This document shows positions 2,780 through 22,023 of a DNA stretch of 64,000 bases, piece by piece. Position numbers and translations under genes: made by a program. Location: positions 1,789 through 65,788 of the forward strand of contig JAVCCW010000006.1 in assembly GCA_030765235.1 (NCBI GenBank), given 5' to 3'. Positions within the stretch are counted from its first letter, which is position 1, and each line of letters starts with the position of its first letter. The DNA is from Candidatus Gorgyraea atricola. GTDB taxonomy: Bacteria; Omnitrophota; Gorgyraeia; Gorgyraeales; Gorgyraeaceae. Below the pieces are notes generated by a model. The model was not told the DNA's origin. It was given only the letters and a program-made list of their open reading frames with translations, and ran no database searches.

Positions 2780-2823
2780 ATGGAGTAATTTTAACAGATA
2801 GGTCAAAACTTAGCAAGTAAATT

Positions 2824-4279: not shown

Positions 4280-4297
4280 CTCCTGCCCTCCTCATAT

Positions 4298-4861: not shown

Positions 4862-5433
4862 CAGTAATTCTCGCAGAGCAGTTCGTAATGCGCTTGTGGA
4901 TGAGCGCATGCAGGACATTCCTTAGGCGCCTCTTTGCCCTCATGCACATAGCCGCAATTTCGGCATTTCCATTTTACTATTCTTTCTTTCTTAAATACAG
5001 TCCCATCTTTTATATTTTTCAGTAGTTTTCTATATCTTTTCTCATGCTCTTCCTCGACCTCTGCTATCTCTTTGAACTGATCCGCTATCTCGTTAAAACC
5101 TTCTTCGCGCGCTGTCTTTTCCGCGTCCTTGTAGAGCTTTGTCCACTCCATATTTTCACCAGCCGCTGAGGCTTCGAGGTTCTGGCTAGTATCACCTATT
5201 ACTCCTGCTGGATATGATGCCTGGATCTCCACTTCTCCGCCCTGAAGCAGCTTAAAAAACCTCTTTGCATGTTCTTTCTCGTTTTCAGCTGTTTCTAAAA
5301 ATATTGATGCTATCTGTTCGTATCCTGCCTTTTTTGCAACACTCGCAAAATAGGTGTACCGATTTCTTGCCTGCGACTCCCCTGCGAACGATGCCAGGAG
5401 ATTTTTTTCTGTCTTTGATCCTTTTAACTTCAT
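4861..5433 (-). CDS. rbr: Rubrerythrin
   Basis: Diiron ferritin-like domain with EEHAKRF / EEEHEKRY motifs plus C-terminal rubredoxin-like CRNCG...CPAC. Confidence 0.9.
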
Positions 5434-6590
5434 AGTGCCTCCCTTATCTTTTGTTTTAATTCCTCTAATTCTTTATCATCTGGAATGTACTGTATCTTCA
5501 AACCCTTTAAAGGCTGCTCGAATTTACACGCCTCAAAAATCTTTTCTATCTCGCCAATGCTCTGACCTCCCCAGCCATATGAGCCAAAGGCAAAGCCAAC
5601 CCTATTTTTTGGCGCAAGGCCTTTCATATAAGTCAAAAAAGCTGAAACAGTAGGCATTATACCATTATTCAGAGTAGGTGAACCAACGCATATATACTTC
5701 GCCTCTAAGACCTCGGCCATTATATCAGAGATATGATCTGTAAGAAGGCTTTTCATTGTACAATTTATGCCTTTTTCTTTAAATGCATTTTCGATTGTAT
5801 GCGCCATTTTTTCAGTACTATGCCACATTGTATCATAGACAATGACTGCTTTTTTATCGCATGTATTAGTAGACCATTTTTTATAAAAATCTATGATATT
5901 CTTTAGTTTTTTGCGCCAGATCAATCCATGGCTCGGCGCTATCATATCTATATCGAGTGAACCAACAACCTCTAATGCCTTTTGTACCTGCTGGCCATAT
6001 GGAAGTACGATATTTGCATAATACTTTGCTGCTTCTTCTTTAATAATATCCCACTTAAGCTCGTCGACAAAACGCTCATCTGATGCAATATGCTGGCCAA
6101 ATGCATCATTAGACAAAAGCAGCTTCTCTTCAGAAACATAGGTCACCATTGAGTCAGGCCAATGCACCATTGGCACACATACGAATTTCAGATTTCTCTT
6201 ACCTATATTAATAGAATCGCCTGAATTAACTACCTTAAAATCCCAATCCTTCTTAAAGTGCCTTTTTAGCCCCTTTGCGCCATTAGGAGAGCACACAAGC
6301 GTTGCATTTTTTGCTATTTCCATCATCCTTGGTAATCCACCAGAGTGATCCATCTCAGTGTGATTTGAAATAATATAATCTATTTTTGCTGGATCAACTA
6401 TCTTCTTAATTCTCTCAAGCATCTCGTCAAAAAGATAGTGTTTAACAGTGTCCACGAGCACTATCTTTTCATCTATTATGAGATAGGCATTATAGGTAGA
6501 TCCACGCTGCGTGAGATAACCATGAAAATTCCTTAGATCCCAATCAATCGCCCCGACCCAATATATGCCTTTTTTAATCTCCAATCTCAT
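5430..6590 (-). CDS. fprA: Flavodiiron protein (FprA / rubredoxin:oxygen-NO oxidoreductase)
   Basis: Metallo-beta-lactamase-like HxExDH motif (HTEMDHSGG) followed by a flavodoxin domain; 386 aa. Confidence 0.9.
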
Positions 6591-7279
6591 CCTTCCTTTA
6601 CGAATTGGTCTTTGGTGGCGCCGCAGATTGGGCAGACCCAGTTATCTGGTAACTTTTCAAATGGCGTGCCTGGCTGGACTCCGTTATCTGGATCACCTGC
6701 TGCTGGATCATAGATATAATTACAGACTTCACATCGATATTTCTGCATCTTGATACCTCCTGTAGCCATGCCTTCTCCTTTAATAAAGGTAGGCGCTGTC
6801 TTTGGTGTTGTGCCGCGTTTTACCTGGTGATAATAAGCATATGTCATAGGAGTACCTGTTTTCAAAATCTCAGATTCTAACATCTCTCCTAAAAAAAGCG
6901 TATGCGTGCCACAATCAAGCTTATTTACTACTTTTGCATCAAAATAGCCAAGTGAATAATCCACAACTACTGGACATCCAGAAGAAAGCCTTTTAGACTT
7001 GATCCCCTTAAACTTATCTTCTTTCCTACCTGAGGCAAAACCAAACTTGCCTATGAAATTAAGCGGTGTATCTTCTGACAATATAGAGACGCTGAATCTG
7101 CTGCTTTTTTCTATAAATTCATGCGTCAGATTCTGCTTATTAATGCTTACTGCAACAGTTACAGGGTCACTTGTTATCTGAATGACAGCATTCGCGATCT
7201 GACCATTTAAAGAATCGCCTTTATTTGAAGCAACGATGTACATGCCATAGCCAATATTATGCAGAACATTTGGATCCAT
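6587..7279 (-). CDS. hrb: High-molecular-weight rubredoxin (flavin reductase-like domain fused to rubredoxin)
   Basis: N-terminal flavin-reductase-like domain plus C-terminal CEVCNYIYD...CPICG rubredoxin; adjacent to fprA as in the clostridial FprA/Hrb pair. Confidence 0.8.
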
Positions 7280-8570
7280 ATCTCTCTAATGCCTCCTTTA
7301 AATCTTTCTGGGGTTCGCCAATCAATTTTAGATCAAAATTTTTCTGAAGCACCTCAAATACATTCTTGGAAATAAAGGCAGGGGGTGTTGGCCCAATATA
7401 CATACCTTTTATACCAAGATACAATAAAGATAAAAGTATTGCAACTGCTTTTTGCTCAAACCAGGAAAGCACCAGCGTCAATGGCAAGCCATTTACATCA
7501 GTATTAAATGCCTTTGCTAATGCAGCTACTATCTGTACTGCAGAATAGGCATTATTACACTGACCTACGTCCAGGAGTCGTGGGATACCGTCTATGTCTC
7601 CAAAATCTAGTTTATTAAAACGATATTTTCCGCACGCCAGAGTAAGGATTACAGAATCCTTAGGTACTGATTCAGCAAATTCTGTGTAATAGTTGCGTCC
7701 TGGTTTTGCTCCATCGCATCCGCCGATTAAAAAGAAATGTTTTATCTTCCCAGATTTGACAGCTCCTACTATCTTTTCTGCCAGACCAAGCACTGCTGTG
7801 TGGTGAAAACCAGTCATGATCTTTTTACCAGGCGCCTCAGGTAGTGCGGGTAAAGACTTTGCTTTTTCTATTAACTTACTGAAGTCTTTTCTGTCTTTTA
7901 TATGATTAGCGCCAGTGACTCCAGTAATACCTATAGTAAAGAGCCTGTCCTGATAAGTATCTTTGGGCGGGATCAACACACAATTCGTAGTAGCCAGAAT
8001 CGCTCCTGGAAATTCCTTGAATTCTTTTTTCTGGTCCTGCCATGCGCTGCCAAAATTACCGACCAGGTGCGTGAATTTCTTTAATTCAGGGTAGCCATGT
8101 GCAGGAAGCATTTCGCTGTGAGTATAGACATTGATCCCGGTTCCTTGTGTTTGTTTTAAAAGCTCATAAAGATCCAAAAGGTCATGACCTGTAATAAGTA
8201 TACCGGGGCCCTTTTTTGTCCCTGTCTCAACCTCTGTAGGCACGGGATTTCCAAATCTATCTGTGTGCGCCTTATCGAGAAGTTCCATCACCTTAAGATT
8301 TATTTCTCCGCACTTCAGAACCATCTCAAGATACTGGTTCAAATCAAAGCTCACGTTCGTCACTGTCTTAAACAATGCCTCGTGCATGAATGCATCAACA
8401 GTCCCGTCTTTTGCGCCTAATTCCCTTGCGTGATACGCGTAAGCTGCTATGCCCTTGAGGCCAAAAAGCAATATATCCTGAAGACTCTGTATATCCTCAT
8501 TCTTTCCACACACGCCCATCTTTGTACATCCGCTTCCGCCTGCTGTTTGTTCACATTGATAGCAAAACAT
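7257..8570 (-). CDS. hcp: Hybrid cluster protein / hydroxylamine reductase (short class)
   Basis: Hallmark N-terminus MFCYQCEQT; 437 aa. Confidence 0.9.
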
Positions 8571-8571
8571 A

Positions 8572-8820
8572 TTAGCCCTCCTTTTGTTTTCGTTTTTTAT
8601 ATTTTTTATACTTCTCTGGGCCTATACAATCTTTTGCCATGCTGCACCAGTCAAGGCATGATTGCGGCATATCTCTTGAGACCTTTTTTTTGCAATGCGG
8701 ACAAGTAGTATCCGCTTCATCTGACCAGATCTCTACCTCTTTTCCGCACTTGCATTTTATATTCTCAGGAAAAGGCTCTTTGATTCTTTTAGAACCCGGG
8801 CATCCGTCAAAAAAACTCAC
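8572..8820 (-). CDS. Small cysteine-rich (zinc-ribbon-like) protein
   Basis: 82 aa, CKCGK...CPHCKK and C..WC.....C; immediately downstream of hcp; lysine-rich tail. Confidence 0.4.
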   Translation of the reverse strand: MSFFDGCPGSKRIKEPFPENIKCKCGKEVEIWSDEADTTCPHCKKKVSRDMPQSCLDWCSMAKDCIGPEKYKKYKKRKQKEG

Positions 8821-8821
8821 G

Positions 8822-9580
8822 CTATGCCTCCTTTATATCGCCTTTGATCCCCACAATCACTTTCTCTAAAGGAATCTTTTTGCCAGATAGTCGCAAGGCC
8901 TCTTTGACGATCTGAATCAAGCCAAAACAACACGGTACCTCCATGTGAAGAACCGTGATGCTTTTGATATTATTCAATTTAAAAAGTTCTGCCAGTTTTT
9001 CTTCATATATAGTAGCCGCATCAAGCTTCGGACAACCAATAAGAAGCACCTTGTCCCTCAGGAAATCCTGGTGAAAATCAGGATATGAAAACGCCACACA
9101 ATCCGCAGCTATAACCAGATCCGCTTCCTTTAAATAAGGCGCTTCCACAGGCACAAGCATGAGCTGTATAGGCCAATTTCCTAATTCAGGCTCGCTCTTG
9201 ACCCTCCCTTGTCTCTTGTCCCTTGCCTGCCCCGTACGAAATCTTTGATTTTCGTATGGGGTCCCTTGTCCCTTACTAAGCGTTTTCACTGCTGTTCCAG
9301 GACAACCACAGGGTAATTCTTTCTTCTCGCGCTTCTCAAGCTCCTCCAAATGCTTCTTTGTAGCCTTCTCATCAAAACCAGCTGACTCTCTTTCCTCTAT
9401 AGTTATAGCATCTTCAGGACAATGCCCAAGACACGCGCCCAGACCATCGCAGTAGATCTCTTTCACGAGCTTTGCCTTTCCATCTATTATCTGAAGCGCG
9501 CCTTCTGCGCAATTAGGGATACAAAGTCCGCAGCCCGTGCATTTTTCTTCGTCTATTTTTACGATTTTCCTTTTTGCCAT
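8822..9580 (-). CDS. 4Fe-4S ferredoxin-domain protein (hcp-associated) carrying an in-frame palindromic-element insertion
   Basis: CTGCGLCIPNC ... CLGHCP ferredoxin motifs; C-terminal Cys-rich domain. The segment GQGTPYENQRFRTGQARDKRQG is encoded by the 61-nt repeat. Confidence 0.7.
   Translation of the reverse strand: MAKRKIVKIDEEKCTGCGLCIPNCAEGALQIIDGKAKLVKEIYCDGLGACLGHCPEDAITIEERESAGFDEKATKKHLEELEKREKKELPCGCPGTAVKTLSKGQGTPYENQRFRTGQARDKRQGRVKSEPELGNWPIQLMLVPVEAPYLKEADLVIAADCVAFSYPDFHQDFLRDKVLLIGCPKLDAATIYEEKLAELFKLNNIKSITVLHMEVPCCFGLIQIVKEALRLSGKKIPLEKVIVGIKGDIKEA
9214..9274. repeat. RPE-like small palindromic element, copy A (inside ferredoxin-like CDS)
   Basis: 61 nt, 60/61 identical to 19997-20057. 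Core palindrome CCCCGTACGAAATC-TTT-GATTTTCGTATGGGG flanked by CTTGTCCC repeats. Confidence 0.85.
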
Positions 9581-9584
9581 GATC

Positions 9585-9989
9585 TTACTCCTTTAATAGA
9601 GATGCTATTGTAATCTTTTCTAATTCTTGCTTTACTAAGAGACAAATGCCTTTTAATTTTTTTCTAAGGACGCACTTCTTTACATTCGGACAGATCTTGC
9701 CTTTTAAAAGGCAGTTCGTAAAATCCAGTTTTCCTTGAAAGATTTCAATCAAATCTATCAGTCGTATTTTACTTGGGGATTTTTGAAAAGAAAATCCGCC
9801 TCTTTTCCCCTTGTGAGAGCGAAGCACCTTTTTCCTTGCCAGCTCCTGAAGTATTCTCCTTAAAAATCTCTCAGGCAGACGCTCCTCTTTGACAATCTCA
9901 TCCACTGTTATAATGTCACTCTTAGATGAGCGTGCCATGAACACTAGGGCCCGTATCGCATAATCTGTATCTCTTGCAATGAAATTCAT
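9585..9989 (-). CDS. Rrf2-family transcriptional regulator (NsrR/IscR-like)
   Basis: N-terminal wHTH typical of Rrf2 (DYAIRALVFMA); 134 aa; next to the hcp cluster. Confidence 0.85.
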   Translation of the reverse strand: MNFIARDTDYAIRALVFMARSSKSDIITVDEIVKEERLPERFLRRILQELARKKVLRSHKGKRGGFSFQKSPSKIRLIDLIEIFQGKLDFTNCLLKGKICPNVKKCVLRKKLKGICLLVKQELEKITIASLLKE

Positions 9990-10023
9990 AATGATACTAA
10001 TATAGTATTATTATCTAATTTTG

Positions 10024-10725
10024 TCAAGCCTTTTTTGAAGAAATCTTTGAAAGGAAGATGCTCAGCTCATAAAGCACTATTAAAGGTATAGCCATAAGGC
10101 ATTGCGTGATTACATCAGGTGGGGTAAGAATTGCGCCTATTATAAAGATTATCAAGATAGCATACTTCCTGTTCTTTGCCAGGGTCTGTGGTTTTACAAT
10201 ACCTGTCTTTGTAAGTAACAGTATTATTAAAGGAAGCTGAAAGACCAGGCCAAATACCAGCGTAAGCATGCATACAAAAGACACATACTTGCCTACGCTT
10301 ATCATAGGGATAACATTTACTGTGCCAAAACTCATAAGAAACTTTATCCCTATGGGCACAATCAAAAAATACCCGAAGTAGCTGCCTATTACAAAAAATA
10401 TAAATGAAAAAAATACATATAAAGAGGCGTATCTTCTTTCCCTCTTTTTTAAGCCTGCTGATATAAAATCCCAGACCTGATAGAGTATAAATGGCGAGGA
10501 AAAATACAGCCCTCCAAAAAGCGCGATCTTTATATTGGTAATAAACGCCTCCTGTGGCGCAATAAATACAAGCGTACCGTCCAGGGGCCTGACTAAATGC
10601 GAGAAAATCTTATCTGTAAAGGTATAGACAAATATAGACGCGACAATCATAAAAATAACTGATTTCATGATCGTACGTCTCAATTCTTCCAGGTGGCCGA
10701 TAAAATTAAGTCTCTTGCCTGGCAT
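10024..10725 (-). CDS. tatC: Twin-arginine translocase subunit TatC
   Basis: N-terminal HLEELRRTI motif; 6 TM segments; 233 aa. Confidence 0.85.
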   Translation of the reverse strand: MPGKRLNFIGHLEELRRTIMKSVIFMIVASIFVYTFTDKIFSHLVRPLDGTLVFIAPQEAFITNIKIALFGGLYFSSPFILYQVWDFISAGLKKRERRYASLYVFFSFIFFVIGSYFGYFLIVPIGIKFLMSFGTVNVIPMISVGKYVSFVCMLTLVFGLVFQLPLIILLLTKTGIVKPQTLAKNRKYAILIIFIIGAILTPPDVITQCLMAIPLIVLYELSIFLSKISSKKA

Positions 10726-10751
10726 ATAAAAACCTTAAACCCTTCTTGTTT

Positions 10752-11429
10752 CTAAAATTTTAAAAGATAACTCCATATATAATAACAACCTACAGCTATA
10801 AATATCGACCCTGTCGCCTTCCTCGCATATAACTCGAGCTTTGAAAAACGCTCGAACCATCGCAAGAACGATTTGACCCCTAATGCGATGATCACGGCGA
10901 AAAAAACAACCGGTAAGCCTGTGCCAATGCCGTATAGAAAAGGAAGGATAATCCCATATTTATGACTCAGTGATAGCGGGATCAAACTGCCAAAAAATAA
11001 CGCCGCGGAGAGCGGACAAAATGACAGCGCGAAAATAACACCAAGTAAAAACGCGCCTCTCATACCCGACTGCGCCAGATATTTCTGTTTTTCCTGAGAA
11101 ATAGAAATATTAGGCACGCTAAACCTGATGACATCCAGCAAAAACAGCCCTACGAGGATCAAGAGAGGGCCCAATATTTTATTCATATATCTCTGCAGGA
11201 AATTGGCAAGAGAAGGGATATTAACCAGGGATGTGATGATAATGCTTCCTAAAACAAAATAAGCGAACATGCGGCCAAATGTATACGCGAGTCCTGCCCG
11301 CAATACAAACTTTGGATCTGATGCCTGTTTGGATAAAAACGACACAGCGGCAATATTGGTCGCTAATGGACAGGGGCTTATTGAGGTAAGGATGCCGAAC
11401 CAGAATGCTGAAAACAATACTATGATCAT
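10752..11429 (-). CDS. DsbD_2/CcdA-family thiol:disulfide transmembrane electron-transfer protein
   Basis: Two membrane-embedded Cys motifs (ISPCPL, SFCPLS); polytopic. Confidence 0.7.
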   Translation of the reverse strand: MIIVLFSAFWFGILTSISPCPLATNIAAVSFLSKQASDPKFVLRAGLAYTFGRMFAYFVLGSIIITSLVNIPSLANFLQRYMNKILGPLLILVGLFLLDVIRFSVPNISISQEKQKYLAQSGMRGAFLLGVIFALSFCPLSAALFFGSLIPLSLSHKYGIILPFLYGIGTGLPVVFFAVIIALGVKSFLRWFERFSKLELYARKATGSIFIAVGCYYIWSYLLKF

Positions 11430-11440
11430 TTTTATCTAAA

Positions 11441-11881
11441 CTACAGCTCGCTTAAAAAACCATTTACTTCTTTTTTGATATATTTATAAAATTTATCTTT
11501 ATTGTCCAGATATTCCCAGACCTTTGGAAGGTTTTTATACTCCAGTTCCTTGCCGTCTCTTATGAAAGAAAGTACCACTGATTTTGTGTAAAGCCCGTAA
11601 TCCTCGATAAAATGGGAGTTTTCTTTTTCATCAACATTTATAATTTTATACACCAGTTCTCCTGAGTCAAACTCTTTCACAAAATACTTATCAAGGGATT
11701 CTTTGGTGTATTTTTCTATCTTGTGGCAGTTAGAGCAGCGAAAACTACTATGGAAATAATAGGCTATTATGTGATCTCCGGGAGAAGAATCAGGCTCTTC
11801 TGCAGCCATAACGCTGAATGATGCTATAAAAAGAAAAAGCGCTATTGTAAAAACAGGTATAACGCGTTTTAAGAAATCCAT
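11441..11881 (-). CDS. Exported thioredoxin-fold protein with CxxC (partner of the DsbD_2 protein)
   Basis: Signal peptide; FRCSNCHK motif; gene order trx-lipoprotein-DsbD_2. Confidence 0.45.
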   Translation of the reverse strand: MDFLKRVIPVFTIALFLFIASFSVMAAEEPDSSPGDHIIAYYFHSSFRCSNCHKIEKYTKESLDKYFVKEFDSGELVYKIINVDEKENSHFIEDYGLYTKSVVLSFIRDGKELEYKNLPKVWEYLDNKDKFYKYIKKEVNGFLSEL

Positions 11882-12099
11882 TTAATTATCTCCTCAGGGG
11901 AGGATATCTTCCCTGATGCCTTTACCTTGCCGTCGATGACTATCGCGGGAGTCATCATAACGCCATAGTCGGTTATTTTATCCATGTCCTCTACTTTGAT
12001 TATCTCGATTTCAACGCCTTTTCTTTTAGCGGCCTCTTGCGCATTGTTATAAAGCATATTACATCTCTGGCAACCCATTCCTAATATCTCTATTTTCAT
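11869..12099 (-). CDS. Thioredoxin-family small redox-active disulfide protein (GCxxC)
   Basis: MKIEILGMGCQRCN...; start moved to the internal MKIEIL codon; 76 aa. Confidence 0.65.
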   Translation of the reverse strand: MKIEILGMGCQRCNMLYNNAQEAAKRKGVEIEIIKVEDMDKITDYGVMMTPAIVIDGKVKASGKISSPEEIIKWIS

Positions 12100-12263
12100 A
12101 ATAATACAGGCGCAAGGCACAACAAGACATGTTCCCTGGCGTACCATTTTACAAGGGCCAAAGACTCAAAAAGCGGGCCCCTGAAAGGAAGACTCTCTAC
12201 TGGAAAGTAGTAACTTATCAGGAAGCCCGCTATTATCAAAAAGAGCGTGTTTCTTCTATTCAC

Positions 12264-12728
12264 TTATTTCTTGCCCATCATGCCAGTCTTGCCCATCTTG
12301 CCTTTGCTGCAAAGAGACTTCATTTTCTTCTTCTGATCTGCAGTAAGGGTGCTTTTAAGCACTGCGCATGCTGCTACCAGGGCTTTTGCTTTTTCTTTCT
12401 TAATCTCGTATTTCTTGTCGATAAGAACGTTTACTGCGTTCAGATCGATCGTATCCTCCCACATGCTTGCCTTTATATCAAGCGCAAGTATGTCGATCTC
12501 AGCCTTTTTCCTGATCAAATCCTTCTTGGTGCTGATCTTCAGGTCTTTTATCTTTTCTACCTGCTCATCTGTAAGACCTAACTCCTCCTGGTTCTTGATA
12601 ATCATCATGGCCTTTTTATAGAATTTCCCACTAAGGTCACCATGACAGCCTTTCATCTTCCCATGCTCTGCATACACACTCGGCACCAAAAGACTGAGAC
12701 ACACTAAAACTAACAATACCTTCCTCAT
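12264..12728 (-). CDS. Periplasmic Spy/CpxP/ZraP-like LTXXQ-motif protein
   Basis: Signal peptide MRKVLLVLV..., two LTxxQ motifs (LTDEQ, LTADQ), His/Met-rich ends. Confidence 0.55.
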   Translation of the reverse strand: MRKVLLVLVCLSLLVPSVYAEHGKMKGCHGDLSGKFYKKAMMIIKNQEELGLTDEQVEKIKDLKISTKKDLIRKKAEIDILALDIKASMWEDTIDLNAVNVLIDKKYEIKKEKAKALVAACAVLKSTLTADQKKKMKSLCSKGKMGKTGMMGKK

Positions 12729-12811
12729 AATTCCCCCTTTCTTTTCTTTATTATACACCTAAAAACAAAGAATCCCAAGCAAAATCCTACTTGGGATGTA
12801 ATATTCCCGCG

Positions 12812-12854
12812 GAAGAGGAAGTAGGCCAGGTTTAAACCTGGCCTACTTCCTCTT
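12812..12854. repeat. REP-like palindrome, core GTAGGCCAGGTTTAAACCTGGCCTAC with extended 19-bp stem
   Basis: Perfect inverted repeat GAAGAGGAAGTAGGCCAGG-TTTAAA-CCTGGCCTACTTCCTCTT. The same 26-nt core recurs at 40242 and 45352, each just 3' of a minus-strand gene. Confidence 0.8.
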
Positions 12855-12866
12855 GTATTGTTGTCT

Positions 12867-13676
12867 TCAGTTAATCGACACTGGTTGAAGCGAATCTTTG
12901 CTTATGCCGACTATTCTTTCTTTGGCTAACTGGGCTACCTTCTTCCCTGAAACCAACATGCCGCCGAAGGTTGGGCCCATGCGCGGGATCCCGTATACAG
13001 CTGAGACAGCCATTCCAGTTACAAGCAGCCCTGGATAGATCTCGCCTGTTTTTTCAACGACCAAATCCTCAGAAGTATTCGCATCCATTGGCCCGCATTC
13101 CTTTATCTTAAGAATACCCCGCTTCTCCAGGCTTCTGCACACCCATGCATCATGACCAGTAGCATCGATCACAATCTTAGATTCCAGAGAAATAGGGTCA
13201 ACACAGGTAATTTGTTTTGGAAGAGATGATATTGCTGTCCAGTTTATGACAACACCTTCCATCTTGTTATTTCGTATCACTGCATCATCAAATTTTGTCA
13301 TGTTCAGGATCTTTGCACCTGCATCACATGCAGCTGAGATAAGCTTTGCGCATGCATTCGGGCCATCAGCTACAACCAATCCCTTTTCAACCTCTTTATA
13401 AGGTATCTTCAGCTCATCCAGAATCTCATCTGATGGGCTACGAAAAGTCACTGTATTCATAAGATATCCGCCGAGCCAAAAACCGCCACCTAGATAATTG
13501 TTTGCCTCGATAACTAAAGTCTTAATACCATCTTTTGCCAAATCCATTGCTGCTGTAAGTCCACTTGGCCCGCCACCTACGATAATTACATCTGAAATAA
13601 TATAATCCTCGAGCCATTTGCTAAATTCCCTTACGATAGCTTTACTAATCTTCGCTTCAGTCACAGGATGAAACAT
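12867..13676 (-). CDS. thi4: Thiazole synthase, Thi4 family (archaeal/eukaryote-type)
   Basis: GGGPSGLTAA dinucleotide motif; Thi4-like length; upstream of thiE-thiM. Confidence 0.85.
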   Translation of the reverse strand: MFHPVTEAKISKAIVREFSKWLEDYIISDVIIVGGGPSGLTAAMDLAKDGIKTLVIEANNYLGGGFWLGGYLMNTVTFRSPSDEILDELKIPYKEVEKGLVVADGPNACAKLISAACDAGAKILNMTKFDDAVIRNNKMEGVVINWTAISSLPKQITCVDPISLESKIVIDATGHDAWVCRSLEKRGILKIKECGPMDANTSEDLVVEKTGEIYPGLLVTGMAVSAVYGIPRMGPTFGGMLVSGKKVAQLAKERIVGISKDSLQPVSIN

Positions 13677-13689
13677 GCTTTCCCCCTTC

Positions 13690-14298
13690 CTAGTTAAATA
13701 GAGCCTGGAATTTCTCTATTTCCTTCTTTACATCATCCTTTGTCAGGACTGCTGAAATCGCGCATACTGCGTCTGCTCCAGCATCCACGACCTCTTTTAC
13801 ATTGTCGAGGGTAATGCCACCTATTGCTGTAACAGGTACAGTGCAGTTCTTTTTTATCTCCTTTATGAGCTCAATACCGCAAGGCGCGCCTGCATCATGT
13901 TTTGTCGTGGTTGAAAATATCGGACTTACGCCTAAATAGTCAGCGCCTTTTTTCTCTGCCAGCACTGCCTCTTTTAGATCATGCACTGTTACGCCTATTG
14001 TCTTTGTCTTGCCCAAGAGCTTACGAGCAGTCTCGTATGGCATATCGCCCTGGCCTACATGCACACCATCTGCATCCACTGATAGAGCAGCACCCACTAT
14101 GTCATTTATAATAAATAATGCCTTTCCCTCGCATATGTTCTTAAGCGTCTTTATTTCCTCAAGCAAAAACTCCATCTTGCTCGTTTTGCTTCTATATTGA
14201 ACAACACTCACTCCAGCCTCAATAGCGCTTTTCACATCACTCCGGTTACCATTCTTACTAAGACCAGCATCTGTTACAAAATAATAACCTTTTATCAT
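13690..14298 (-). CDS. thiE: Thiamine-phosphate synthase
   Basis: YFVTD...GADGVHVGQGD...IGVSV...AIGGI motifs. Confidence 0.9.
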   Translation of the reverse strand: MIKGYYFVTDAGLSKNGNRSDVKSAIEAGVSVVQYRSKTSKMEFLLEEIKTLKNICEGKALFIINDIVGAALSVDADGVHVGQGDMPYETARKLLGKTKTIGVTVHDLKEAVLAEKKGADYLGVSPIFSTTTKHDAGAPCGIELIKEIKKNCTVPVTAIGGITLDNVKEVVDAGADAVCAISAVLTKDDVKKEIEKFQALFN

Positions 14299-15080
14299 TC
14301 TACCCTCTTTAGTTTTTCTATTTTTTCTTTGTCCAGATTATAAATATGATCGAATAGCTTTACCTTAAATGTGCCTGGGCCGGCGCTATCCTTGTATGCA
14401 AGCTCTGCTGCGATCTCATAACACGCAAGGCCTGCTGCGCTCGCTTTAGCCAGATCTTTTTCAACAGCACTAAACGCGCCTATGACTGACGCTGCCATGC
14501 ATCCTGTACCTACCACATGCGCCATCATATCGCAGCCATTTTTTACAATAATGTGCTTATCTTTAGTAGCTACTATATCTTCTTTTCCTGTTATAACCAC
14601 TGTGGCATTTCTTTTTGCTGCAAGATGTTTTGCCAGCTCTATTAGATCTTTCTCAACTTCACTCGAATCTACACCCTTTGTCTGGACCTCTTCGCCTGCG
14701 ATCCTGGCAACCTCTGAGGCATTGCCTTTTATAATATCAATCCTTGCACAATCCAGAAGCTCAAAACACTTTTCATCCCTTAATTTCGTAGCGCCTGCGC
14801 CGCATACATCCAGTGTAACGGGTATACCTTTTTTATTCGCTGATTTCGCGGCCTTTTTCATTGATTCAATAAATTCAGGTGTCAATGTACCTATATTAAG
14901 CACAAGCGCTGACGCCAGAGACGCCATATCCTCGACCTCTTCCGCAGCATGAGCCATTACAGGCGCAGCGCCAAACACCTTCACGATGTTAGCACAATCA
15001 TAAATCGTGACCCAATTCGTAAGATGATGCACCAAAGGCTTCTCCGTCCTAACTTTCTGCAAAATACTATAGATGTCCAT
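14295..15080 (-). CDS. thiM: Hydroxyethylthiazole kinase
   Basis: VHHLTNWVT...NIGTL...VVGTGCM motifs; ATG at 15080 preceded by AGGAGG. Confidence 0.9.
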   Translation of the reverse strand: MDIYSILQKVRTEKPLVHHLTNWVTIYDCANIVKVFGAAPVMAHAAEEVEDMASLASALVLNIGTLTPEFIESMKKAAKSANKKGIPVTLDVCGAGATKLRDEKCFELLDCARIDIIKGNASEVARIAGEEVQTKGVDSSEVEKDLIELAKHLAAKRNATVVITGKEDIVATKDKHIIVKNGCDMMAHVVGTGCMAASVIGAFSAVEKDLAKASAAGLACYEIAAELAYKDSAGPGTFKVKLFDHIYNLDKEKIEKLKRVE

Positions 15081-15099
15081 CAATTCCTCCTAATAAATA

Positions 15100-15335
15100 A
15101 AAAACCCTATGCTAATACATAGGGTTTTTACAAATCTTTTTCCCTACGCTGGCATTATCCAGTTCAGGTTCATCGGGTAATCCGCCTTGCCCCGTTCCAA
15201 ATTCTTCAATATCATCAAATAATCTACAAGAATTGCCCGCAATTAGTTACAAACAATCAATAGATTATCGATTAGAATTTGGAATGGGGTCTAGCAGAAC
15301 TCTCAGGCCGCTCACGACCTCCCCGTTGTTAACTA
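15100..15335 (-). promoter_or_regulatory. TPP riboswitch (THI element) with intrinsic-terminator expression platform upstream of thiM
   Basis: On the minus strand: GGGGAGGUCGUGAGCGGCCUGAGA ... ACCCGAUGAACCUGAACUGGAUAAUGCCAGCGUAGGGAA matches the TPP aptamer consensus. It is followed by hairpin AAAAACCCUAUG-UAUUAG-CAUAGGGUUUUU plus a U-run, then AGGAGG and the thiM ATG. The P3 stem is unusually long (15190-15289). Confidence 0.85.
15190..15289. repeat. Long palindromic insertion forming riboswitch P3 (15-bp arms CCCCGTTCCAAATTC / GAATTTGGAATGGGG, ~70-nt interior)
   Basis: Arms match the intergenic palindromes at 32826-32856 and 32724-32747 and resemble the RPE-like core. Confidence 0.6.
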
Positions 15336-15367
15336 AATTAAAACATAGATACTACTTACTGTCAATA

Positions 15368-15733
15368 TTAAAAACAGCAAGCGCTCATGCCGGCTTTTTT
15401 GCATACTTCTAAAACATTGATGTCAACGCCGCATTCAGGGCATTTGATCATGCATTCTTTCTTGATGTTTGCCATGTATTTTTCTGGGTCGCTGTTGAAA
15501 GTCTCTATGCAGCCAGGGCAGCAGAATCCTATTGTCTTTCCATTGTATTCTGTTTTATACTGCGTGTCTTTGCTGACTTCACCTTCCATAACAGGGCAAA
15601 GAGTATTGATCGCTTCTCCTGTTTCGCCGGATTTTGCAGATCCTGCGCCACACGCGCCACAACCTGCAAACGCAAGGCTAGATGATACAAAGAACACAAA
15701 CACTACCACTAATAACGTTATGAGTTTTTTCAT
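15368..15733 (-). CDS. Exported YHS-domain metal-binding protein (putative copper chaperone of the cus operon)
   Basis: Signal peptide; CPVMEGEV...YNGKTIGFCCPGC...F..DPEKY YHS motif; extra Cys-rich tail. Confidence 0.6.
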   Translation of the reverse strand: MKKLITLLVVVFVFFVSSSLAFAGCGACGAGSAKSGETGEAINTLCPVMEGEVSKDTQYKTEYNGKTIGFCCPGCIETFNSDPEKYMANIKKECMIKCPECGVDINVLEVCKKAGMSACCF

Positions 15734-18700
15734 ATGTTATCTCCTTTCTTAGTTTTCCTAAGCTGGGCTTCCTTAATCCAGCAGTATAAGACTGGCACAA
15801 GAATCAGATTAGAAAGTGTTGCTGTAACCAGGCCCCCGACTGTCGGGGATGCCATTGGTTTCATGATCTCAGAACCTGTACCTGTTGAAAGCATTACAGG
15901 GATCAGAGCGATGATCGTAGTCGTAGCAGTCATCATTGCCGGCCTTACCCTTAAGAGCCCGCCTTCAATAACAGTTTTTCGGATATCTTCTATGGTCTTT
16001 GGAACCTTTTTTTTAAACAAATCATCCAGGGTTGAAAGCAGTACCACAGCATTATCAGTTGCTACACCAAATAGCGCAATGAATCCAACCCACACAGCAG
16101 TAGAAAATTTAAATCCCAGGATGAATAATAAAATAATACCGCCCATGAGAGAAACAGGTATGCCTGTGGAGAGTATCAGTAAACTGCTAAAATTCTTAAA
16201 CGCCACGTAAAGCAACATCAGTATAACGGCCAGAGCGATGATAAGCGATGGTATGAGCTTCTTTCTCGACTCCATCTCTGACTCGAACTGGCCTGACCAG
16301 GAAATAAAATATCCCTGAGGCAGTTTCAAATCTCCGTTATCTATTCTTTCTTTTACTGCCGCTTGAGCCTCATTTACAAAATCTATCAACCCGATTTTGT
16401 CCTGATTGACATTTACAAAGACCCTTGCGTAAGTCTGAGTGTCCTCTGAATTGATAACTGCCGGGCCAGGCACCCTTTTTAAAGTCGCAACCTGTGTCAA
16501 AGGTATGTGCTCGCCAGCCGGCGTGGGGATAAAAATCCTTTCCAGCGCTTCCGGCGAATCTCTTAATTCCCTCAGGTATCTTATCCTTACCGGATACCTC
16601 TCTCTTCCTTCGACCGTGGTAGTCAGATTCATGCCGCCTATTGCTGTCATTATTATATGCTGTATATCTCCTATTTTTACGCCAAAACGAGCGGCCTTTT
16701 CTCTGTCTATGTCTATCTCAAAATACGGCCTATTTGATGTGCGTTCGGCATACGGACTCACTGCGCCTTCTACCCCACTTACTATATCTTCTATCTTAAC
16801 TGCGATCTCAACTATCTTTCCCAGATCAGTTCCAAAGACTTTGATACCCACTGGTGTCTGTATACCTGTGGCCAGCATATCTATTCTATTGCGTATTGGC
16901 TGTGTCATTATAGGGCTTACCCCAGGCATCCTGGTCTTTTCCTGGATCTCCTGAATGAGTTTCTCTCTGGTCATGCCTTTACGCCAGAATTTCTTGTCCT
17001 TAAGATGGATGATACTTTCGATCATGCTTACAGGCGCGGGATCTGTTGCAGTTTCTGCGCGGCCTAACTTACCTACTACCCACTTGACCTCTGGAAATTC
17101 ATTTTTTATAATAATATCCTGTTTTTTCATAACCTCCATTACCTGCGTCAGAGACGCGCCAGGTAAAAATACAGGCATGAATAGAAGATCCCCCTCGTTC
17201 AAAGGAGGCATAAATTCCTGACCCATCATAGAGCCGCATAATAAACCTATCAGTATAACTGCAATAGAAATGAGAATTACTATTCCTTTATGCTTAAGGG
17301 ACCAACGGATGATCGGGTTATATCCTTTATACAAGGCCCGGGCTGTCCTGTTTTCTTCAACAGGCCGCAATCTGCCCCTTAAAAAATAATAGCAAAGTGT
17401 TGGTAAAAGCATCAGGGCGATCACAGCAGCAGCTCCCATGGCAAATGTCTTTGTAAATGCGAGCGGCGTAAAGAGCTTGCCTGCCTGTCCTGTCAAAACA
17501 AAAACAGGGATAAACCCTACGATAGTCGTGAGAAGGGCAAACAGCACTGGCTTTCCAACTTCTTGCGCTCCGGATATGCAGACGTTCAGCCTTTCATCAG
17601 GCGCAAGCCGCTCCACGCCCAATTCTTTGAGCCTCGTAGCCAATCTTCTATAAATATTTTCTACCAGCACACAGCCAGAATCCACCATCACGCCTATGGC
17701 TATTGCAATACCGCCCAAAGACATGATATTCGCATCCACGCCATACTGGCGCATTAATATAAAGGAAAGAAGCACGCCTATCGGCAATACCATGGATATA
17801 ACAGCGCTTCCCCCAAAATGCAGCAAGAATACAAGAATTACAAAAACTGTGATTATCATCTCCTGCATCAGGGCACTTTTTAATGTATTGATAGCCCGCA
17901 TGATAAGGCCTGTTCTATCATAAAAGGGGACTATCTTTACTCCTTTAGGAAGGCCTACTGAGAGTTCATCTATTTTTTTCTTAATATTCTCTATCACTTT
18001 AAGGGGGTTTTCCCCATACCTCATTAAAATAACGCCGCCTGTAACTTCTTTTCCTTCTTTATCCAAAGCACCTCTACGGAATTCAGGACCTATTGTCACA
18101 TTCGCGATATTCTTTATATATATCGGGGTACCTTCTTTAACATCTACGACAATGTTCTCTATATCAGAGACATTTTTTATAAAACCAACACCGCGGACAA
18201 TGAACTCTATGCCCCCTTCTTCAAATACCTTTGCCCCTACATCTATATTGGACTTCTGGACAGAGGTTATGACTTCGTGGATTTTTATATCATGCGCTAA
18301 AAGTTTATTCGGGTCTATATCGATCTGATACTGCTTTACATATCCGCCAACTGATGCGACTTCTGATACGCCTTCAACCGCGGTCAACTGATAACGCACG
18401 TACCAATCCTGAATCGAACGAAGCTCTGCCAGATCATAGCCATCGCCCTCGACTGTATACCAAAAGATCTGCCCTAATGCAGTTGCGTCCGGGCCCAAGG
18501 TAATTTTTGCGTCACCAGGAATATCTCTTTTTGCAAAATCCAGCCTTTCCAGGACCCTGGTCCTTGCCCAATAATAATCTGTCCCCTCTTTGAAGATCAT
18601 ATTCACAAGGCCAAATCCGAACGCAGATGTCGAACGCACCACCTTTACTTTCGGCGTGCCCATCAGTCCTGTTGTCAACGGATATATGACCTGGTCTTCT

Positions 18701-18882
18701 ACATCTCTGGGGCTTCTCCCCGGCCAATCAGCATAGACAATAACCTGAAGTTCGCCTATATCAGGTATTGCATCTATAGGGATCTCCTTCATTGAAGAAA
18801 ATCCCCAGAAAATCAAAAGCGCAAACGTCGCTATGACCAGGAATCTATTTTTAAGACAAATTTCGATAATTTTATTTATCAT
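15730..18882 (-). CDS. cusA: CusA/CzcA-family heavy-metal efflux RND transporter
   Basis: 1050 aa; N-terminus collinear with CusA (NRFLV...IPIDAIPDIG...QVIYPLTTGLMG...YYWARTRVLERL). Confidence 0.9.
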   Translation of the reverse strand: MINKIIEICLKNRFLVIATFALLIFWGFSSMKEIPIDAIPDIGELQVIVYADWPGRSPRDVEDQVIYPLTTGLMGTPKVKVVRSTSAFGFGLVNMIFKEGTDYYWARTRVLERLDFAKRDIPGDAKITLGPDATALGQIFWYTVEGDGYDLAELRSIQDWYVRYQLTAVEGVSEVASVGGYVKQYQIDIDPNKLLAHDIKIHEVITSVQKSNIDVGAKVFEEGGIEFIVRGVGFIKNVSDIENIVVDVKEGTPIYIKNIANVTIGPEFRRGALDKEGKEVTGGVILMRYGENPLKVIENIKKKIDELSVGLPKGVKIVPFYDRTGLIMRAINTLKSALMQEMIITVFVILVFLLHFGGSAVISMVLPIGVLLSFILMRQYGVDANIMSLGGIAIAIGVMVDSGCVLVENIYRRLATRLKELGVERLAPDERLNVCISGAQEVGKPVLFALLTTIVGFIPVFVLTGQAGKLFTPLAFTKTFAMGAAAVIALMLLPTLCYYFLRGRLRPVEENRTARALYKGYNPIIRWSLKHKGIVILISIAVILIGLLCGSMMGQEFMPPLNEGDLLFMPVFLPGASLTQVMEVMKKQDIIIKNEFPEVKWVVGKLGRAETATDPAPVSMIESIIHLKDKKFWRKGMTREKLIQEIQEKTRMPGVSPIMTQPIRNRIDMLATGIQTPVGIKVFGTDLGKIVEIAVKIEDIVSGVEGAVSPYAERTSNRPYFEIDIDREKAARFGVKIGDIQHIIMTAIGGMNLTTTVEGRERYPVRIRYLRELRDSPEALERIFIPTPAGEHIPLTQVATLKRVPGPAVINSEDTQTYARVFVNVNQDKIGLIDFVNEAQAAVKERIDNGDLKLPQGYFISWSGQFESEMESRKKLIPSLIIALAVILMLLYVAFKNFSSLLILSTGIPVSLMGGIILLFILGFKFSTAVWVGFIALFGVATDNAVVLLSTLDDLFKKKVPKTIEDIRKTVIEGGLLRVRPAMMTATTTIIALIPVMLSTGTGSEIMKPMASPTVGGLVTATLSNLILVPVLYCWIKEAQLRKTKKGDNI

Positions 18883-18951
18883 GATATACCTTTTGGCACA
18901 CTAAAGTGTGCCCTACAGCTGCTATAAGCTGCTATTGTGTGACCTACTTAA

Positions 18952-20283
18952 TTAATGCTGGTGCCCTGCTGGATTCTTTTTCTCCTCGACACCCACTGCC
19001 CCGCCATACGCTACTGCTGCCACGCCTGAAAGCTGGCTCTGGGAATCAATAAGAAAATTTGCCTTTGTTACAACCATCTCGCCTTCTTTCAGGCCGCTCA
19101 AGACAGGATAGAATTTAGATTCTACTCCATCAATAGCAGAAGTGGATTCTGGCCCTATCTTGATAATCCTTCCTTCATATGCATCATTACCCTGATTAAT
19201 CCAGACAATTTTACGCACGCCTGTATCCAGCACCGCATCCTTTGGTATTGCCAGGACTTCGTACTCTCCATCAGGCCCCATATACATGCTCATGATCACG
19301 ACATCCACGTACATCTCTGGCTTAAGATGCAGGCCTGGATTCTCCACTTCAGCCCTAAATCTTAAAGAGCGCGTCTTTGGATCAAGCACAGGATTTATAG
19401 AGGCTATAACTCCATGAAATTCCTCGCCGGGTAGACTGGACGTAGTGACCTTTACTTCTCCATCTACCTTTGCCCAACCCAGCTCATATTCGTAGACATC
19501 GCCATAAATCCACATCTTCTCTTCTGGTAAAATTAGACTGGTCTCGACCTCTCTTTTTTCTTCTAATTCATTAATCTGGTCTTCGCTCAAGCCCAATAGT
19601 CTCAATTTTCTCTTTGAAGACTCAACCAGATTCAATGCCCTCTCATTTATCTCCTCAATATTCCCTTGCTGTATCTTATCAGAGACCTTTAGGGCCGCGA
19701 TAAATTCCTCCTGGGCAATCGCGAGTCCCGGGTCATAGGCAACTCTGCCTACTGTGCGGATCTCTTTATAGAGATGGAGTTTCTTTGCCGGTTCAGTTCT
19801 AACACCGGCCAGCTGTATTTGCTCGCCTTTTATTTTAACCTTACTAACAACGCCTTTTAACTCTTCTGCCTCTTCTTTTGATAATTCAATCAGATCCATC
19901 CCGCATATGGGACAAGTAGACATACCCTCTATGTCCTTCATAAGAAACACGTGCTCTGCCCCTTCCATGCCACAACCATAATACGCATCCGCCTCGTCTT
20001 GTCCCTTGCCTGCCCCGTATGAAATCTTTGATTTTCGTATGGGGTCCCTTGTCCCTTGTCCCTGATCTTTATACACAGGCGTCAAATACATATTACATAT
20101 AGGACATGATTTGTTACCTTTGTTATATTCCTCCACAGAAACTTTAACGCTAGGGTGCATGCCGCAGGTGTAATGTAATATCCCGTCGCTCGCATCTTGC
20201 TTATCGCTTGTTTTGCCCTGGCTGCAGCCTGTAATCGCAAAAATCGCAATAAATAATATTATAAAAATACTTTTACCTTTCAT
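18952..20283 (-). CDS. cusB: RND efflux periplasmic adaptor (CusB-like) with N-terminal metal-binding motifs and an in-frame palindromic-element insertion
   Basis: Lipoprotein signal (ITGC); two CusB-type metal motifs (HYTCGMHPSV; CPICGMDL); membrane-fusion beta-barrel domain. The segment QGQGTRDPIRKSKISYGAGKGQD is encoded by the 61-nt repeat. Confidence 0.85.
   Translation of the reverse strand: MKGKSIFIILFIAIFAITGCSQGKTSDKQDASDGILHYTCGMHPSVKVSVEEYNKGNKSCPICNMYLTPVYKDQGQGTRDPIRKSKISYGAGKGQDEADAYYGCGMEGAEHVFLMKDIEGMSTCPICGMDLIELSKEEAEELKGVVSKVKIKGEQIQLAGVRTEPAKKLHLYKEIRTVGRVAYDPGLAIAQEEFIAALKVSDKIQQGNIEEINERALNLVESSKRKLRLLGLSEDQINELEEKREVETSLILPEEKMWIYGDVYEYELGWAKVDGEVKVTTSSLPGEEFHGVIASINPVLDPKTRSLRFRAEVENPGLHLKPEMYVDVVIMSMYMGPDGEYEVLAIPKDAVLDTGVRKIVWINQGNDAYEGRIIKIGPESTSAIDGVESKFYPVLSGLKEGEMVVTKANFLIDSQSQLSGVAAVAYGGAVGVEEKKNPAGHQH
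19997..20057. repeat. RPE-like small palindromic element, copy B (inside cusB CDS)
   Basis: 60/61 nt identical to 9214-9274; translated in a different frame from copy A. Confidence 0.85.
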
Positions 20284-21536
20284 TATAAACTCCTCCCAAC
20301 AACTCGTTCAAGATATGCAATTGACTTCTGATAATCGACTATTGTCTTGTAATGCGCCAATTTTGTCTGTAAAAGTACCCTCTCGGCATCGAGCCAGTTC
20401 AAAAAATCTACTTTACCTGTTTCATAGCTGGTCCTTGCCGCATCATAAGCCTGCTCTGCCTGCGGCACCAGGGCAGTTTTATAAAGAGAGACTATATCTT
20501 TATAGGTGGTGATCTTAAAATATAAATCCTCGACCTCATAATCCACGACATTTTCCACATCTTCGTGATTTTTCTTGCTTGATTCTAAAAGTGCTTTCTT
20601 CTCTTTAACCTGGGCGTTTAATTTGCCAAACCAGATCGGGACACTTATTGCCACTTTGCCCATCCACGCATCGTCTCCGTCGTTTGGCTGTGTGGTGCTG
20701 CCGCTTCCTACTTCGATATAGTCAACACCAAATGTAAAATCAGGGAGGTAATCCAATCTTGCCAGAGACCTTTCGTATTTGGCCCTTTCTATATCTAACT
20801 TCGCAGCGAGTAGCTGCTGACTGGACTCCTCTGATATCCGGTGTAGTTCGTCAAGTTCATAGGTAAATTCCATTGATTCAACATCACCTGTCTTGCCTAA
20901 TTCTTCGCCCCTTGGCCTATTAAGGAGTCTGTTCGCCTTTGCCTCCAGGCTCTTTCTATTCTGCCTCAAAAGGAATAACTTATCGATCAATTTTGAAAGC
21001 TCCACCTGCGCCTTGATAACATCCTGCTGGGGCGTAAGATTTGATTCATACTTGCGCTGCGCCACCTTTTCCAGGCCCTCTATTATTGCCTTTTCCTCTT
21101 CTGTTATTTTAATCGCCTTATCCACCCAGAAAATATCATAATACAAAAATTTTACATCCTTTATGATCTCACGCTTCGCAGCTTCGTATTTTTCTTCCAA
21201 TATGCTGGCAAGCTTGGCCTGGGCCTTTCCCTTAAGGCCTAATTTTCCAGGAAACGGGATCTTCTGGGAAACACCGTACTTATGCTCCTGCGGGCCGACC
21301 CTTGTCTCAACGCTCTCGCCAAAATATCCATAGCTAGCTGTAGGATCAGGAAGCCCCCTTACATATCTTGACTTATACTCAGCTGCCTTCCACTCGCTAT
21401 GCACTGCCTGGATCTTTGGATTATTATTCAGCGCTTCATCAATGAGTGAATCAAGCGTTACTATCTCTTCTGAATAGGCATGCCCTGCGGTAATCATCAA
21501 TACAAAAATTATAAAAATAAAGTATCGCATATTCAT
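20283..21536 (-). CDS. cusC: TolC-family outer-membrane efflux protein (CusC-like)
   Basis: Signal peptide; two OEP repeats; 417 aa; start overlaps the cusB stop. Confidence 0.85.
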   Translation of the reverse strand: MNMRYFIFIIFVLMITAGHAYSEEIVTLDSLIDEALNNNPKIQAVHSEWKAAEYKSRYVRGLPDPTASYGYFGESVETRVGPQEHKYGVSQKIPFPGKLGLKGKAQAKLASILEEKYEAAKREIIKDVKFLYYDIFWVDKAIKITEEEKAIIEGLEKVAQRKYESNLTPQQDVIKAQVELSKLIDKLFLLRQNRKSLEAKANRLLNRPRGEELGKTGDVESMEFTYELDELHRISEESSQQLLAAKLDIERAKYERSLARLDYLPDFTFGVDYIEVGSGSTTQPNDGDDAWMGKVAISVPIWFGKLNAQVKEKKALLESSKKNHEDVENVVDYEVEDLYFKITTYKDIVSLYKTALVPQAEQAYDAARTSYETGKVDFLNWLDAERVLLQTKLAHYKTIVDYQKSIAYLERVVGRSL

Positions 21537-21716: not shown

Positions 21717-22001
21717 TCAAGCACTCCTTCTGAACCTCTGTATTAAATTAACAATCTCATCTACCTTTTTTTCCTTTTCAGATTTAGATTTCCCTTTTAA
21801 TGCATGCACAACGCATCCATCTATGTGCTTCCTGAAGATATTATTCTCTACTCTATAGAGCGCTCCTATAATAGAGTGTATTTGAGTGATGATATCCACG
21901 CAATATCTTTTTTCGTCAATCATCCTCTGGATTCCCTTGACCTGACCCTCGATCCTCTTTAAAGGTACTAGCTGTTCCGGGTGTACGGTTTTCTGTTTCA
22001 T
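21717..22001 (-). CDS. csoR: CsoR/RcnR-family metal-sensing transcriptional repressor
   Basis: DUF156 signature (C...H...C spacing: RYCVDIITQIHSIIGAL...HIDGCVVHA). Start placed at the ATG preceded by GGAGGA. Confidence 0.8.
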   Translation of the reverse strand: MKQKTVHPEQLVPLKRIEGQVKGIQRMIDEKRYCVDIITQIHSIIGALYRVENNIFRKHIDGCVVHALKGKSKSEKEKKVDEIVNLIQRFRRSA

Positions 22002-22023
22002 GGCAATCTCTCCTCCCACTACA

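Follow-up and report, generated by a model that had tools for sequence, protein, structure and literature searches.

A 36-nt hairpin module that resides in frame inside unrelated genes was found in two copies in a 64,000-nt stretch of DNA from the Omnitrophota bacterium Candidatus Gorgyraea atricola (contig JAVCCW010000006.1, positions 1,789 to 65,788 of the forward strand; this whole stretch is hereafter the window, and its own numbering is used), and we consider it probable that the module is a selfish dispersed element whose copies have been filtered by selection. Positions 9214-9274 and 19997-20057 of the window carry the same 61 nt with a single mismatch: position 9237 is C, and its counterpart 20020 is T. 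Each copy is contained in a long open reading frame (ORF) of the minus strand. The first, 8822..9580 (252 aa), encodes a 4Fe-4S protein (Fer4 plus AF_0155-type) of an Rrf2-Fer4-hcp cluster, and the second, 18952..20283 (443 aa), encodes a CusB-like periplasmic adaptor with HlyD_D23 and HMBD domains. The two copies are read in different frames, i.e., position 9274 is codon position 1 and position 20057 is codon position 2, and the encoded peptides are GQGTPYENQRFRTGQARDKRQG in the Fer4 protein and QGQGTRDPIRKSKISYGAGKGQD in the CusB-like adaptor. The single mismatch, the coding strand, the difference in frame and the two peptides agree with the initial annotation of this DNA, which had also held that neither ORF is disrupted; in line with that, both host proteins are annotated as intact at NCBI (MDP8229698.1 and MDP8229710.1).

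The repeat is real, since both proteins are annotated as intact and a separately assembled JGI contig (L009) is 100% identical across the Fer4 copy over 2106 nt. An assembly chimera, which the initial annotation had kept as an alternative, or a merely fortuitous likeness of two linkers can practically be dismissed. Nothing was found that supports a chimera, the CusB copy itself being backed by the NCBI contig alone, and against it stand the identical JGI contig and the presence of further copies in separate assemblies and in other metagenome-assembled genomes (MAGs). Chance similarity is opposed by the shuffling control: the window has two matches to the 32-nt core, and 100 shuffles that preserve dinucleotides gave none.

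On the coding strand the layout is (AAGGGAC) x2-3, CCCATACGAAAATC-AAA-GATTTCGTACGGGG, CAGGC and (AAGGGAC) x1-3. The initial annotation had proposed a 61-nt unit around a 32-nt palindromic core. The hairpin stands, but the conserved, dispersed unit is 36 nt (12 codons), composed of an imperfect 32-nt hairpin plus CAGGC, so that the opposite strand reads GCCTG-hairpin, and the palindrome carries one non-Watson-Crick position and a 1-nt bulge. Together with its heptamers the unit spans 61-75 nt. In copy 1 the core occupies 9225..9260 on the minus strand (coding strand CCCATACGAAAATCAAAGATTTCGTACGGGG plus CAGGC), which is exactly the 36 nt absent from the relative L014; its hairpin lies at 9230-9261 in plus-strand coordinates, the last base being common with the adjoining heptamer. 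The upstream heptamers (9261..9274, minus strand) are AAGGGAC x2 and the downstream ones (9204..9224, minus strand) AAGGGAC AAGAGAC AAGGGAG. In copy 2 the core, with its T at 20020, occupies 20008..20043 on the minus strand, between CAGGGAC AAGGGAC AAGGGAC upstream (20044..20064, minus strand) and AAGGGAC AAGAC downstream (19996..20007, minus strand). The flanks, described earlier as CTTGTCCC-type repeats belonging to the element, are direct tandem heptamers, (AAGGGAC)n on the coding strand, and they also occur without a hairpin (in the related L012, a MAG, in L014 and in HemB of the window). A 37-nt core, which would need changes in heptamer number to restore the frame, was considered and rejected, since the insert, when aligned with L014, measures 36 nt and is frame-neutral.

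The two strands of the hairpin do not fold equally well. On the plus (antisense) strand the 32-nt hairpin forms 13 pairs, G.U pairs included, with folding energies of -21 and -19.2 kcal/mol for the two copies (z = -6.6 and -6.4 versus shuffled sequence), and on the mRNA strand the values are -15 and -9.2 kcal/mol (z = -3.4 and -1.7). The plus strand folds much better because the odd stem position and the single-nucleotide difference of copy 2 are G.U/G.T there and A.C on the mRNA. Furthermore, stem substitutions in diverged copies keep the pairing (C-G to G-C in L002 and C-G to T-A in L016). The frames of the core are open in three of three sense and two of three antisense readings. Three open sense frames are, however, expected in 11-14% of composition-matched sequences or hairpins (P about 0.11-0.14), and hence frame openness alone proves nothing. 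The earlier statement that the element tolerates several frames thus holds to the extent that two of the three sense frames are in use, but the open frames themselves are statistically ordinary. The peptides differ in hydropathy, those of the sense frames being hydrophilic (-1.2 to -2.1) and those of the antisense frames hydrophobic (+0.5 to +0.9).

The core was found at eight sites in at least three genomes, namely in the genes of the Fer4 protein, CusB, a SPOR protein, Tgt, LigA, RluD and CysS, and in an rpmF-plsX spacer. Seven of these copies are intragenic and all seven are in frame, with two sense frames in use; all eight are oriented as the local genes. A pattern scan over one genome per species located the core in two other Omnitrophota MAGs (L001 and L002). 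In L001 an RluD-like pseudouridine synthase carries it in frame, read as TTPYENQRFRTGQA; its 36 nt stand between complete units of another heptamer, GAACGAC, and a second, nested palindrome comes after it. In L002 the host is CysS, where the core is likewise in frame, is read as RPVRKSKISYGPR and lacks heptamers. A pattern scan of metagenomes yielded four contigs of sample Ga0075122, which represent the window's own population: L009 is the Fer4 locus itself, and L004, L005 and L010 carry copies in the linker of a SPOR-domain membrane protein, in Tgt and in the HhH-BRCT linker of LigA, respectively. These last three copies have AAGRGAC units on their flanks and are read as PIRKSKISYGAG. The copy in the rpmF-plsX spacer (L020) is intergenic; the 'protein' through which it was located is no more than a spurious ORF that overlaps rpmF. 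Five further metagenome matches (L003, L006, L007, L008 and L011) lack the CCCC/GGGG stem and were discarded as chance.

Searches at the protein level were of little use. When five element peptides were concatenated and compared with 5.8 billion proteins, three candidates and one match were obtained, the match being P0241, the spurious ORF of the intergenic copy; the word index used is ill-suited to a short composite peptide query. An exhaustive HMMER search of 1.84 billion representative proteins with the 33-aa insert region of CusB gave no match, a result that speaks for cluster representatives only. No match to the element was obtained in Rfam or by phage and plasmid BLAST, and terminator and promoter scans gave nothing, the element not being called terminator-like on either strand.

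We then compared filled and empty sites. The relative L014, which has ~85-86% nucleotide identity and is fully syntenic with positions 3..15730 of the window, has five heptamers at the Fer4 site, as does the window, and the window has exactly 36 nt more, between units 2 and 3, with a boundary that is ambiguous by one base. In L012 the Fer4 site is a pure five-unit heptamer array. The dispersed unit is therefore 36 nt, and it comes without a target duplication; none was seen on comparison of filled and empty sites at Fer4 and CysS, the difference in L014 being a clean 36 nt. When the L002 CysS was aligned to a solved CysRS structure the gap was exactly 12 aa, and corresponding alignments showed a 14-residue gap in the HhH-BRCT linker of LigA and, in the L001 RluD, about 35 extra residues directly in front of the catalytic HRLD motif. 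At the CusB site L019 has no insert, only a short 8-aa linker, and L018 has a different palindrome; among the CusB orthologues many have short linkers at this position, others an extra HMBD domain and others repeat-like peptides. The expectation that orthologues would lack the inserted segment is thus borne out for its hairpin part, but the heptamer part is present in L012 and L014.

The inserts fall in disordered linkers or loops, as judged from AlphaFold models and alignments to solved structures, and this is in keeping with the surface loops that had been predicted. In the Fer4 protein the insert is located in a hypervariable linker between CGCPGTAVK and SELGNWP, and in CusB in the linker between two CxxC heavy-metal-binding modules. 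In the AlphaFold models Fer4 residues 84-139 and CusB residues 73-99 have a pLDDT below 50 and no secondary structure; both models are of low confidence overall (mean pLDDT 51.6 and 65.5), and they lend weak support to disorder of the inserts only.

A second in-frame element family is present in the CusB family itself. The palindrome-encoded peptide AEGEISPPASP(A)KRGEQSGGK is found in the HMBD linker of the orthologue P0121 (its DNA is L018, 6001-7338) and near the C-terminus of the orthologues P0123 and P0127, i.e., at different positions. In addition, a 21-nt palindrome, CCTGCCTGCCGGCAGGCATGG, lies in frame (LPAGRHG) in the flavodiiron gene of L014 (~10639) and is absent from the window (~6255); it contains GCCTG/CAGGC, and the same GCCTGCCGGCAGG occurs in L001 at 2750-2779.

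The unrelated hosts, the module-free close relatives and the exactly frame-neutral size point to a small non-autonomous selfish module. In this interpretation a 36-nt frame-neutral hairpin module would recently have been copied to several places in Gorgyraea-like Omnitrophota genomes, and copies would survive only where they are harmless, i.e., with a length that is a multiple of three (3n), without stop codons, with a hydrophilic peptide and in a flexible linker. The uniform sense orientation would follow from the same filter. Translated in silico, each intragenic copy gives a 12-aa hydrophilic stretch, the peptide being set by the codon phase of insertion, so that the same DNA yields two unrelated peptides, PYENQRFRTGQA and PIRKSKISYGAG, in different hosts. 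The conserved object is the DNA, not the peptide. It is accordingly very improbable that selection at the protein level favors the encoded peptide as an adaptive linker module: the inserts are indeed hydrophilic and in linkers, but neither the two unrelated peptides from one DNA nor the intergenic copy of L020 would be expected of it.

We also asked whether the hairpin could be a functional element that the host has recruited and that acts in cis, be it in the sense mRNA, in an antisense transcript or in single-stranded DNA, for instance in translational pausing, in mRNA stability or as a protein-binding site. The excess stability of the plus-strand hairpin over shuffled sequence, the compensatory stem changes and the one orientation relative to transcription in all copies speak for such a role. 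Against it, the hosts are functionally unrelated (redox, efflux, tRNA modification, ligase, tRNA synthetase), close relatives manage without the element, there is neither an Rfam match nor a terminator-like call on either strand, and the hairpin of the mRNA strand is the weaker one. We regard this explanation as improbable. Two effects on decoding were rejected as well. Ribosomal bypassing, as is said to occur in T4 gene 60 and byp elements, does not apply to intragenic copies that are all 3n, stop-free and in frame. A -1 frameshift at the heptamers is countered by AAGGGAC not being slippery and, again, by the copies being 3n and in frame.

The selfish module remains the preferred reading. The heptamers do not require the hairpin: at 27610..27644 on the minus strand five of them (AAGAAAC AAGAGAC AAGAGAC AAGGGAC AAGGGTG) stand without a hairpin, in frame in the HemB/ALAD gene (27060..27974), where they code for KKQETRDKGQG in the loop after HGHCG, a loop that exceeds that of a solved homologue by only about 5 residues. 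In the heptamer-flanked copies the hairpin module sits between complete array units, always after ..GAC; this motif precedes the core in the seven heptamer-flanked copies, and GCGG precedes it in L002. In the window's population AAGRGAC units of one register stand on either side of every copy, and the 3'-adjacent unit is AAGGGAC in five of five. The type of heptamer is common to unrelated loci within a genome and varies from one genome to another. It is unlikely that heptamer number serves phase variation, since essential genes are among the hosts and two assemblies are identical. Outside genes, L020 carries at ~299-420 sense heptamers, 11 nt and then an inverted array, CTTGTCC CTTGTTG CTTGTCA CTTGTCC, from which it follows that arrays are possible in both orientations outside genes; the two arrays could pair into a long hairpin.

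These arrays suggest another route, namely that no transposase is involved and that the module spreads by template switching or gene conversion between heptamer arrays, which would themselves be homogenized dispersed repeats. We regard this route as conceivable but doubtful, on a par with the transposition considered below. The same AAGRGAC units in the same register on both sides, the invariant AAGGGAC on the 3' side, the hairpin-less arrays in HemB, L012 and L014, the lack of a visible target duplication, and the heptamer type that is common to the loci of one genome and differs between genomes would all be accounted for. On the other hand, the L002 copy in CysS has no heptamer array, the identical 36 nt lie between another heptamer in L001, so that an extra step is needed, and the homology arms, of 14-21 nt, are short.

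The Fer4 linker varies among the eight orthologues whose DNA was read. L012 and L014 have heptamer arrays only. In the window there are heptamers, the type A hairpin and CAGGC, and L016 has a diverged version of this with the compensatory change from C-G to T-A. In L023 the heptamers are accompanied by a type B hairpin (TCCCTCGGCTTCGCTCGGGA) and CAGGC, with a further 24-nt nested insert in L022, and in L024 and L025 by GCCTG and a type C hairpin (TCCGCC..GGCGGA) in the opposite orientation. Hence, different hairpins are found at the same array-bearing linker, and the three types abut the same pentanucleotide. GCCTG resembles the GTAG/CGTC tag of repetitive extragenic palindromic sequences (REPs) and is a candidate tag. 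A generic test of GCCTG enrichment next to hairpins was too permissive to be meaningful, and with a stricter hairpin list the tag was found at type A copies only, which leaves types B and C of the Fer4 site as the basis for the idea of a tag.

Further hairpins were observed. Region 21540-21710 of the window, intergenic between the outer-membrane-factor-like gene 20283..21536 and ORF 21717..22019 (whose L018 orthologue has a metal-sensitive repressor domain), has a 41-nt unit x2.2 and a 12-nt unit x2.6, units that contain the type B palindrome TCCCTCGACTYYGCTCGGGA. The type B palindrome recurs in frame in the L001 RluD and in the Fer4 linkers of L023 and L022, and as an indel in L014 near 6791. 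The intergenic hairpins at 2822-2856, 32726-32748 and 32826-32856, and at ~14083 in L014, have CCCGTTCCA..TGGAACGGG as their outer stem, whereas the inner parts vary; in outer stem and loop they are like the type A core (CCCCGTACGAAATC-TTT-..), and they may form a related extragenic family.

As to how the selfish module is copied, only a tentative proposal can be made. Elements of the IS200/IS605 type insert 3' of a short motif and without target duplication. Copying of the module could likewise proceed via a folded single strand, as in REPs and IS200/IS605-type HUH transposases, in which case GCCTG would be a tag like that of REPs and insertion would preferably be into the heptamer array. The absence of a target duplication, the tag and the position after ..GAC fit single-strand, hairpin-guided transposition of this kind, which we put forward as conceivable but doubtful. 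The IS200/IS605-like features are themselves mixed, in that ..GAC gives way to GCGG in L002 and the orientation bias is confounded, and the module has a single hairpin, unlike IS200/IS605-derived palindrome-associated elements with their two subterminal ones.

Several observations weigh against the selfish module. No transposase or other mobilizing gene was found in the window, where 20 small ORFs were compared and none gave a match. Copy number is low, with five copies in the population as far as it is assembled. Simple transposition leaves the heptamer arrays unexplained, with the same heptamer recurring within a genome and others elsewhere. The orientation bias (8/8) is confounded with replication direction: from 2963 to 56083 almost all genes of the window are encoded by the minus strand, the plus strand has a GC skew of -0.13 to -0.21 and the coding density is about 92%, which is consistent with one replichore arm with co-oriented genes. 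Finally, the Fer4 linker bears heptamers in most orthologues, so that loss of the hairpin in the relatives, in place of a gain in the window, is conceivable. A more far-reaching reading, which we think rather unlikely, is that Omnitrophota harbor a modular type of intragenic mobile DNA, with GCCTG-tagged hairpins of at least three types (A, CCCCATACG..; B, TCCCTCGRCTTCGCTCGGGA; C, TCCGCC..GGCGGA) in linker-coding heptamer arrays, templated homogenization of the arrays and an enzyme of its own.

The element was likened in the initial annotation to the Rickettsia palindromic elements (RPEs), which are reportedly those of Ogata et al. 2000. The likeness is considerable: it is palindromic, it lies in frame in unrelated, apparently functional genes, it is translated where the fold tolerates it, in linkers, and it does not code for anything by itself. 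That palindromic repeats can reside in frame within genes is well established (PMC3733652, PMC10969869). RPEs, however, are about 100-150 bp long, have one conserved peptide per family and occur in Rickettsia (PMC10969869), whereas the Gorgyraea unit has 36 nt, is read in two frames as two peptides, has an Omnitrophota host and is embedded in tandem heptamers. Judged by the published description of the family, the comparison with RPEs thus fails in size, conserved peptide and host genus.

REPs carry a GTAG or CGTC tetranucleotide at one end (PMC3733652), and those located inside genes are GTAG/CGTC-tagged palindromes associated with REP-associated tyrosine transposases (RAYTs) (PMC3733652, PMC3116915). 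The Omnitrophota element shares with REPs an imperfect palindrome of 20-40 nt, a short conserved end tag, G.T stem positions and the lack of a target duplication. It shares with intragenic REPs that some copies are in frame in known genes, including replication, repair and pseudouridine-synthase genes. Its tag is GCCTG, though, and not GTAG/CGTC, and seven of its eight copies are intragenic, whereas REPs are mostly extragenic, number tens to hundreds of copies and often form inverted doublets. No REPIN doublets were seen among the copies found, and no RAYT (a Y1 HUH transposase) was found among 20 small ORFs of the window. The element hence behaves like RPEs and intragenic REPs, but membership in either family fails, and it represents a new family, with a much smaller unit and in a phylum new for such elements. 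Other palindromes of the window look like classic GTAG-type REPs or terminators, and they form a family apart from the in-frame element: there are three copies of the perfect palindrome GTAGGCCAGGTTTAAACCTGGCCTAC (12821-12847, 40241-40267 and 45351-45377), intergenic and just 3' of minus-strand genes, and a second GTAG-headed palindrome, GTAGGGGACACTTAAGTGTCCCCTAC, is at 31883-31908.

The heptamer context is reminiscent of the cyanobacterial STRR (short tandemly repeated repetitive) sequences and small dispersed repeats, which are reportedly those of Mazel 1990, Vioque 1997 and Elhai et al. 2008 (Genome Res 18:1484). STRR are tandem 7-nt repeats dispersed over the genome, also in functional genes at tolerated positions, and hairpin repeats of less than 40 nt are associated with them. 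The combination of heptamers with a hairpin would be alike, phylum and sequences differ, and in-frame residence in protein linkers is the rule in the Omnitrophota element. MITEs (miniature transposable elements with inverted repeats) have terminal inverted repeats of 15-30 bp, a target-site duplication and a length of 70-300 bp. The Omnitrophota element is similarly non-autonomous and dependent on secondary structure, but it has neither terminal inverted repeats nor a target duplication and is far shorter than that.

With regard to the surroundings of the two host genes, the Fer4 ORF has an Rrf2 regulator on one side and, on the other, a small zinc-ribbon ORF followed by a Prismane/hcp gene; upstream of its own Rrf2-Fer4-hcp cluster L012 has CRISPR-like repeats, GTTTCAATCCACGCGCCCCTGCGGGGCGCGAC, at 457-724. 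The CusB gene is adjoined by ORF 15730..18882 (1050 aa), which is CusA-like by position and size alone, and by ORF 20283..21536, whose L018 orthologue has an outer-membrane efflux (OEP) domain.

In-frame 'protein-coding palindromes' have hitherto come mainly from Rickettsia, together with scattered intragenic REPs. The same phenomenon is now seen in an uncultured, ultra-small-celled phylum, with a unit of exactly 12 codons that is tied to tandem heptamers, and it offers a concrete case for how very small repeats move and why linkers receive them. Material for its study is at hand in sites with and without the module, in an orthologous site that has several types of hairpin, and in a candidate tag. 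Such inserts inflate the apparent 'hypervariability' of linkers in alignments, and they can mislead homology-based annotation and structure prediction of Omnitrophota proteins. The more interesting question is how hairpin modules, GCCTG tag and heptamer arrays, the latter specific to each genome, are coupled; if the rather unlikely reading of a modular system with its own enzyme were true, Omnitrophota would possess a dedicated system that continually remodels protein linkers.

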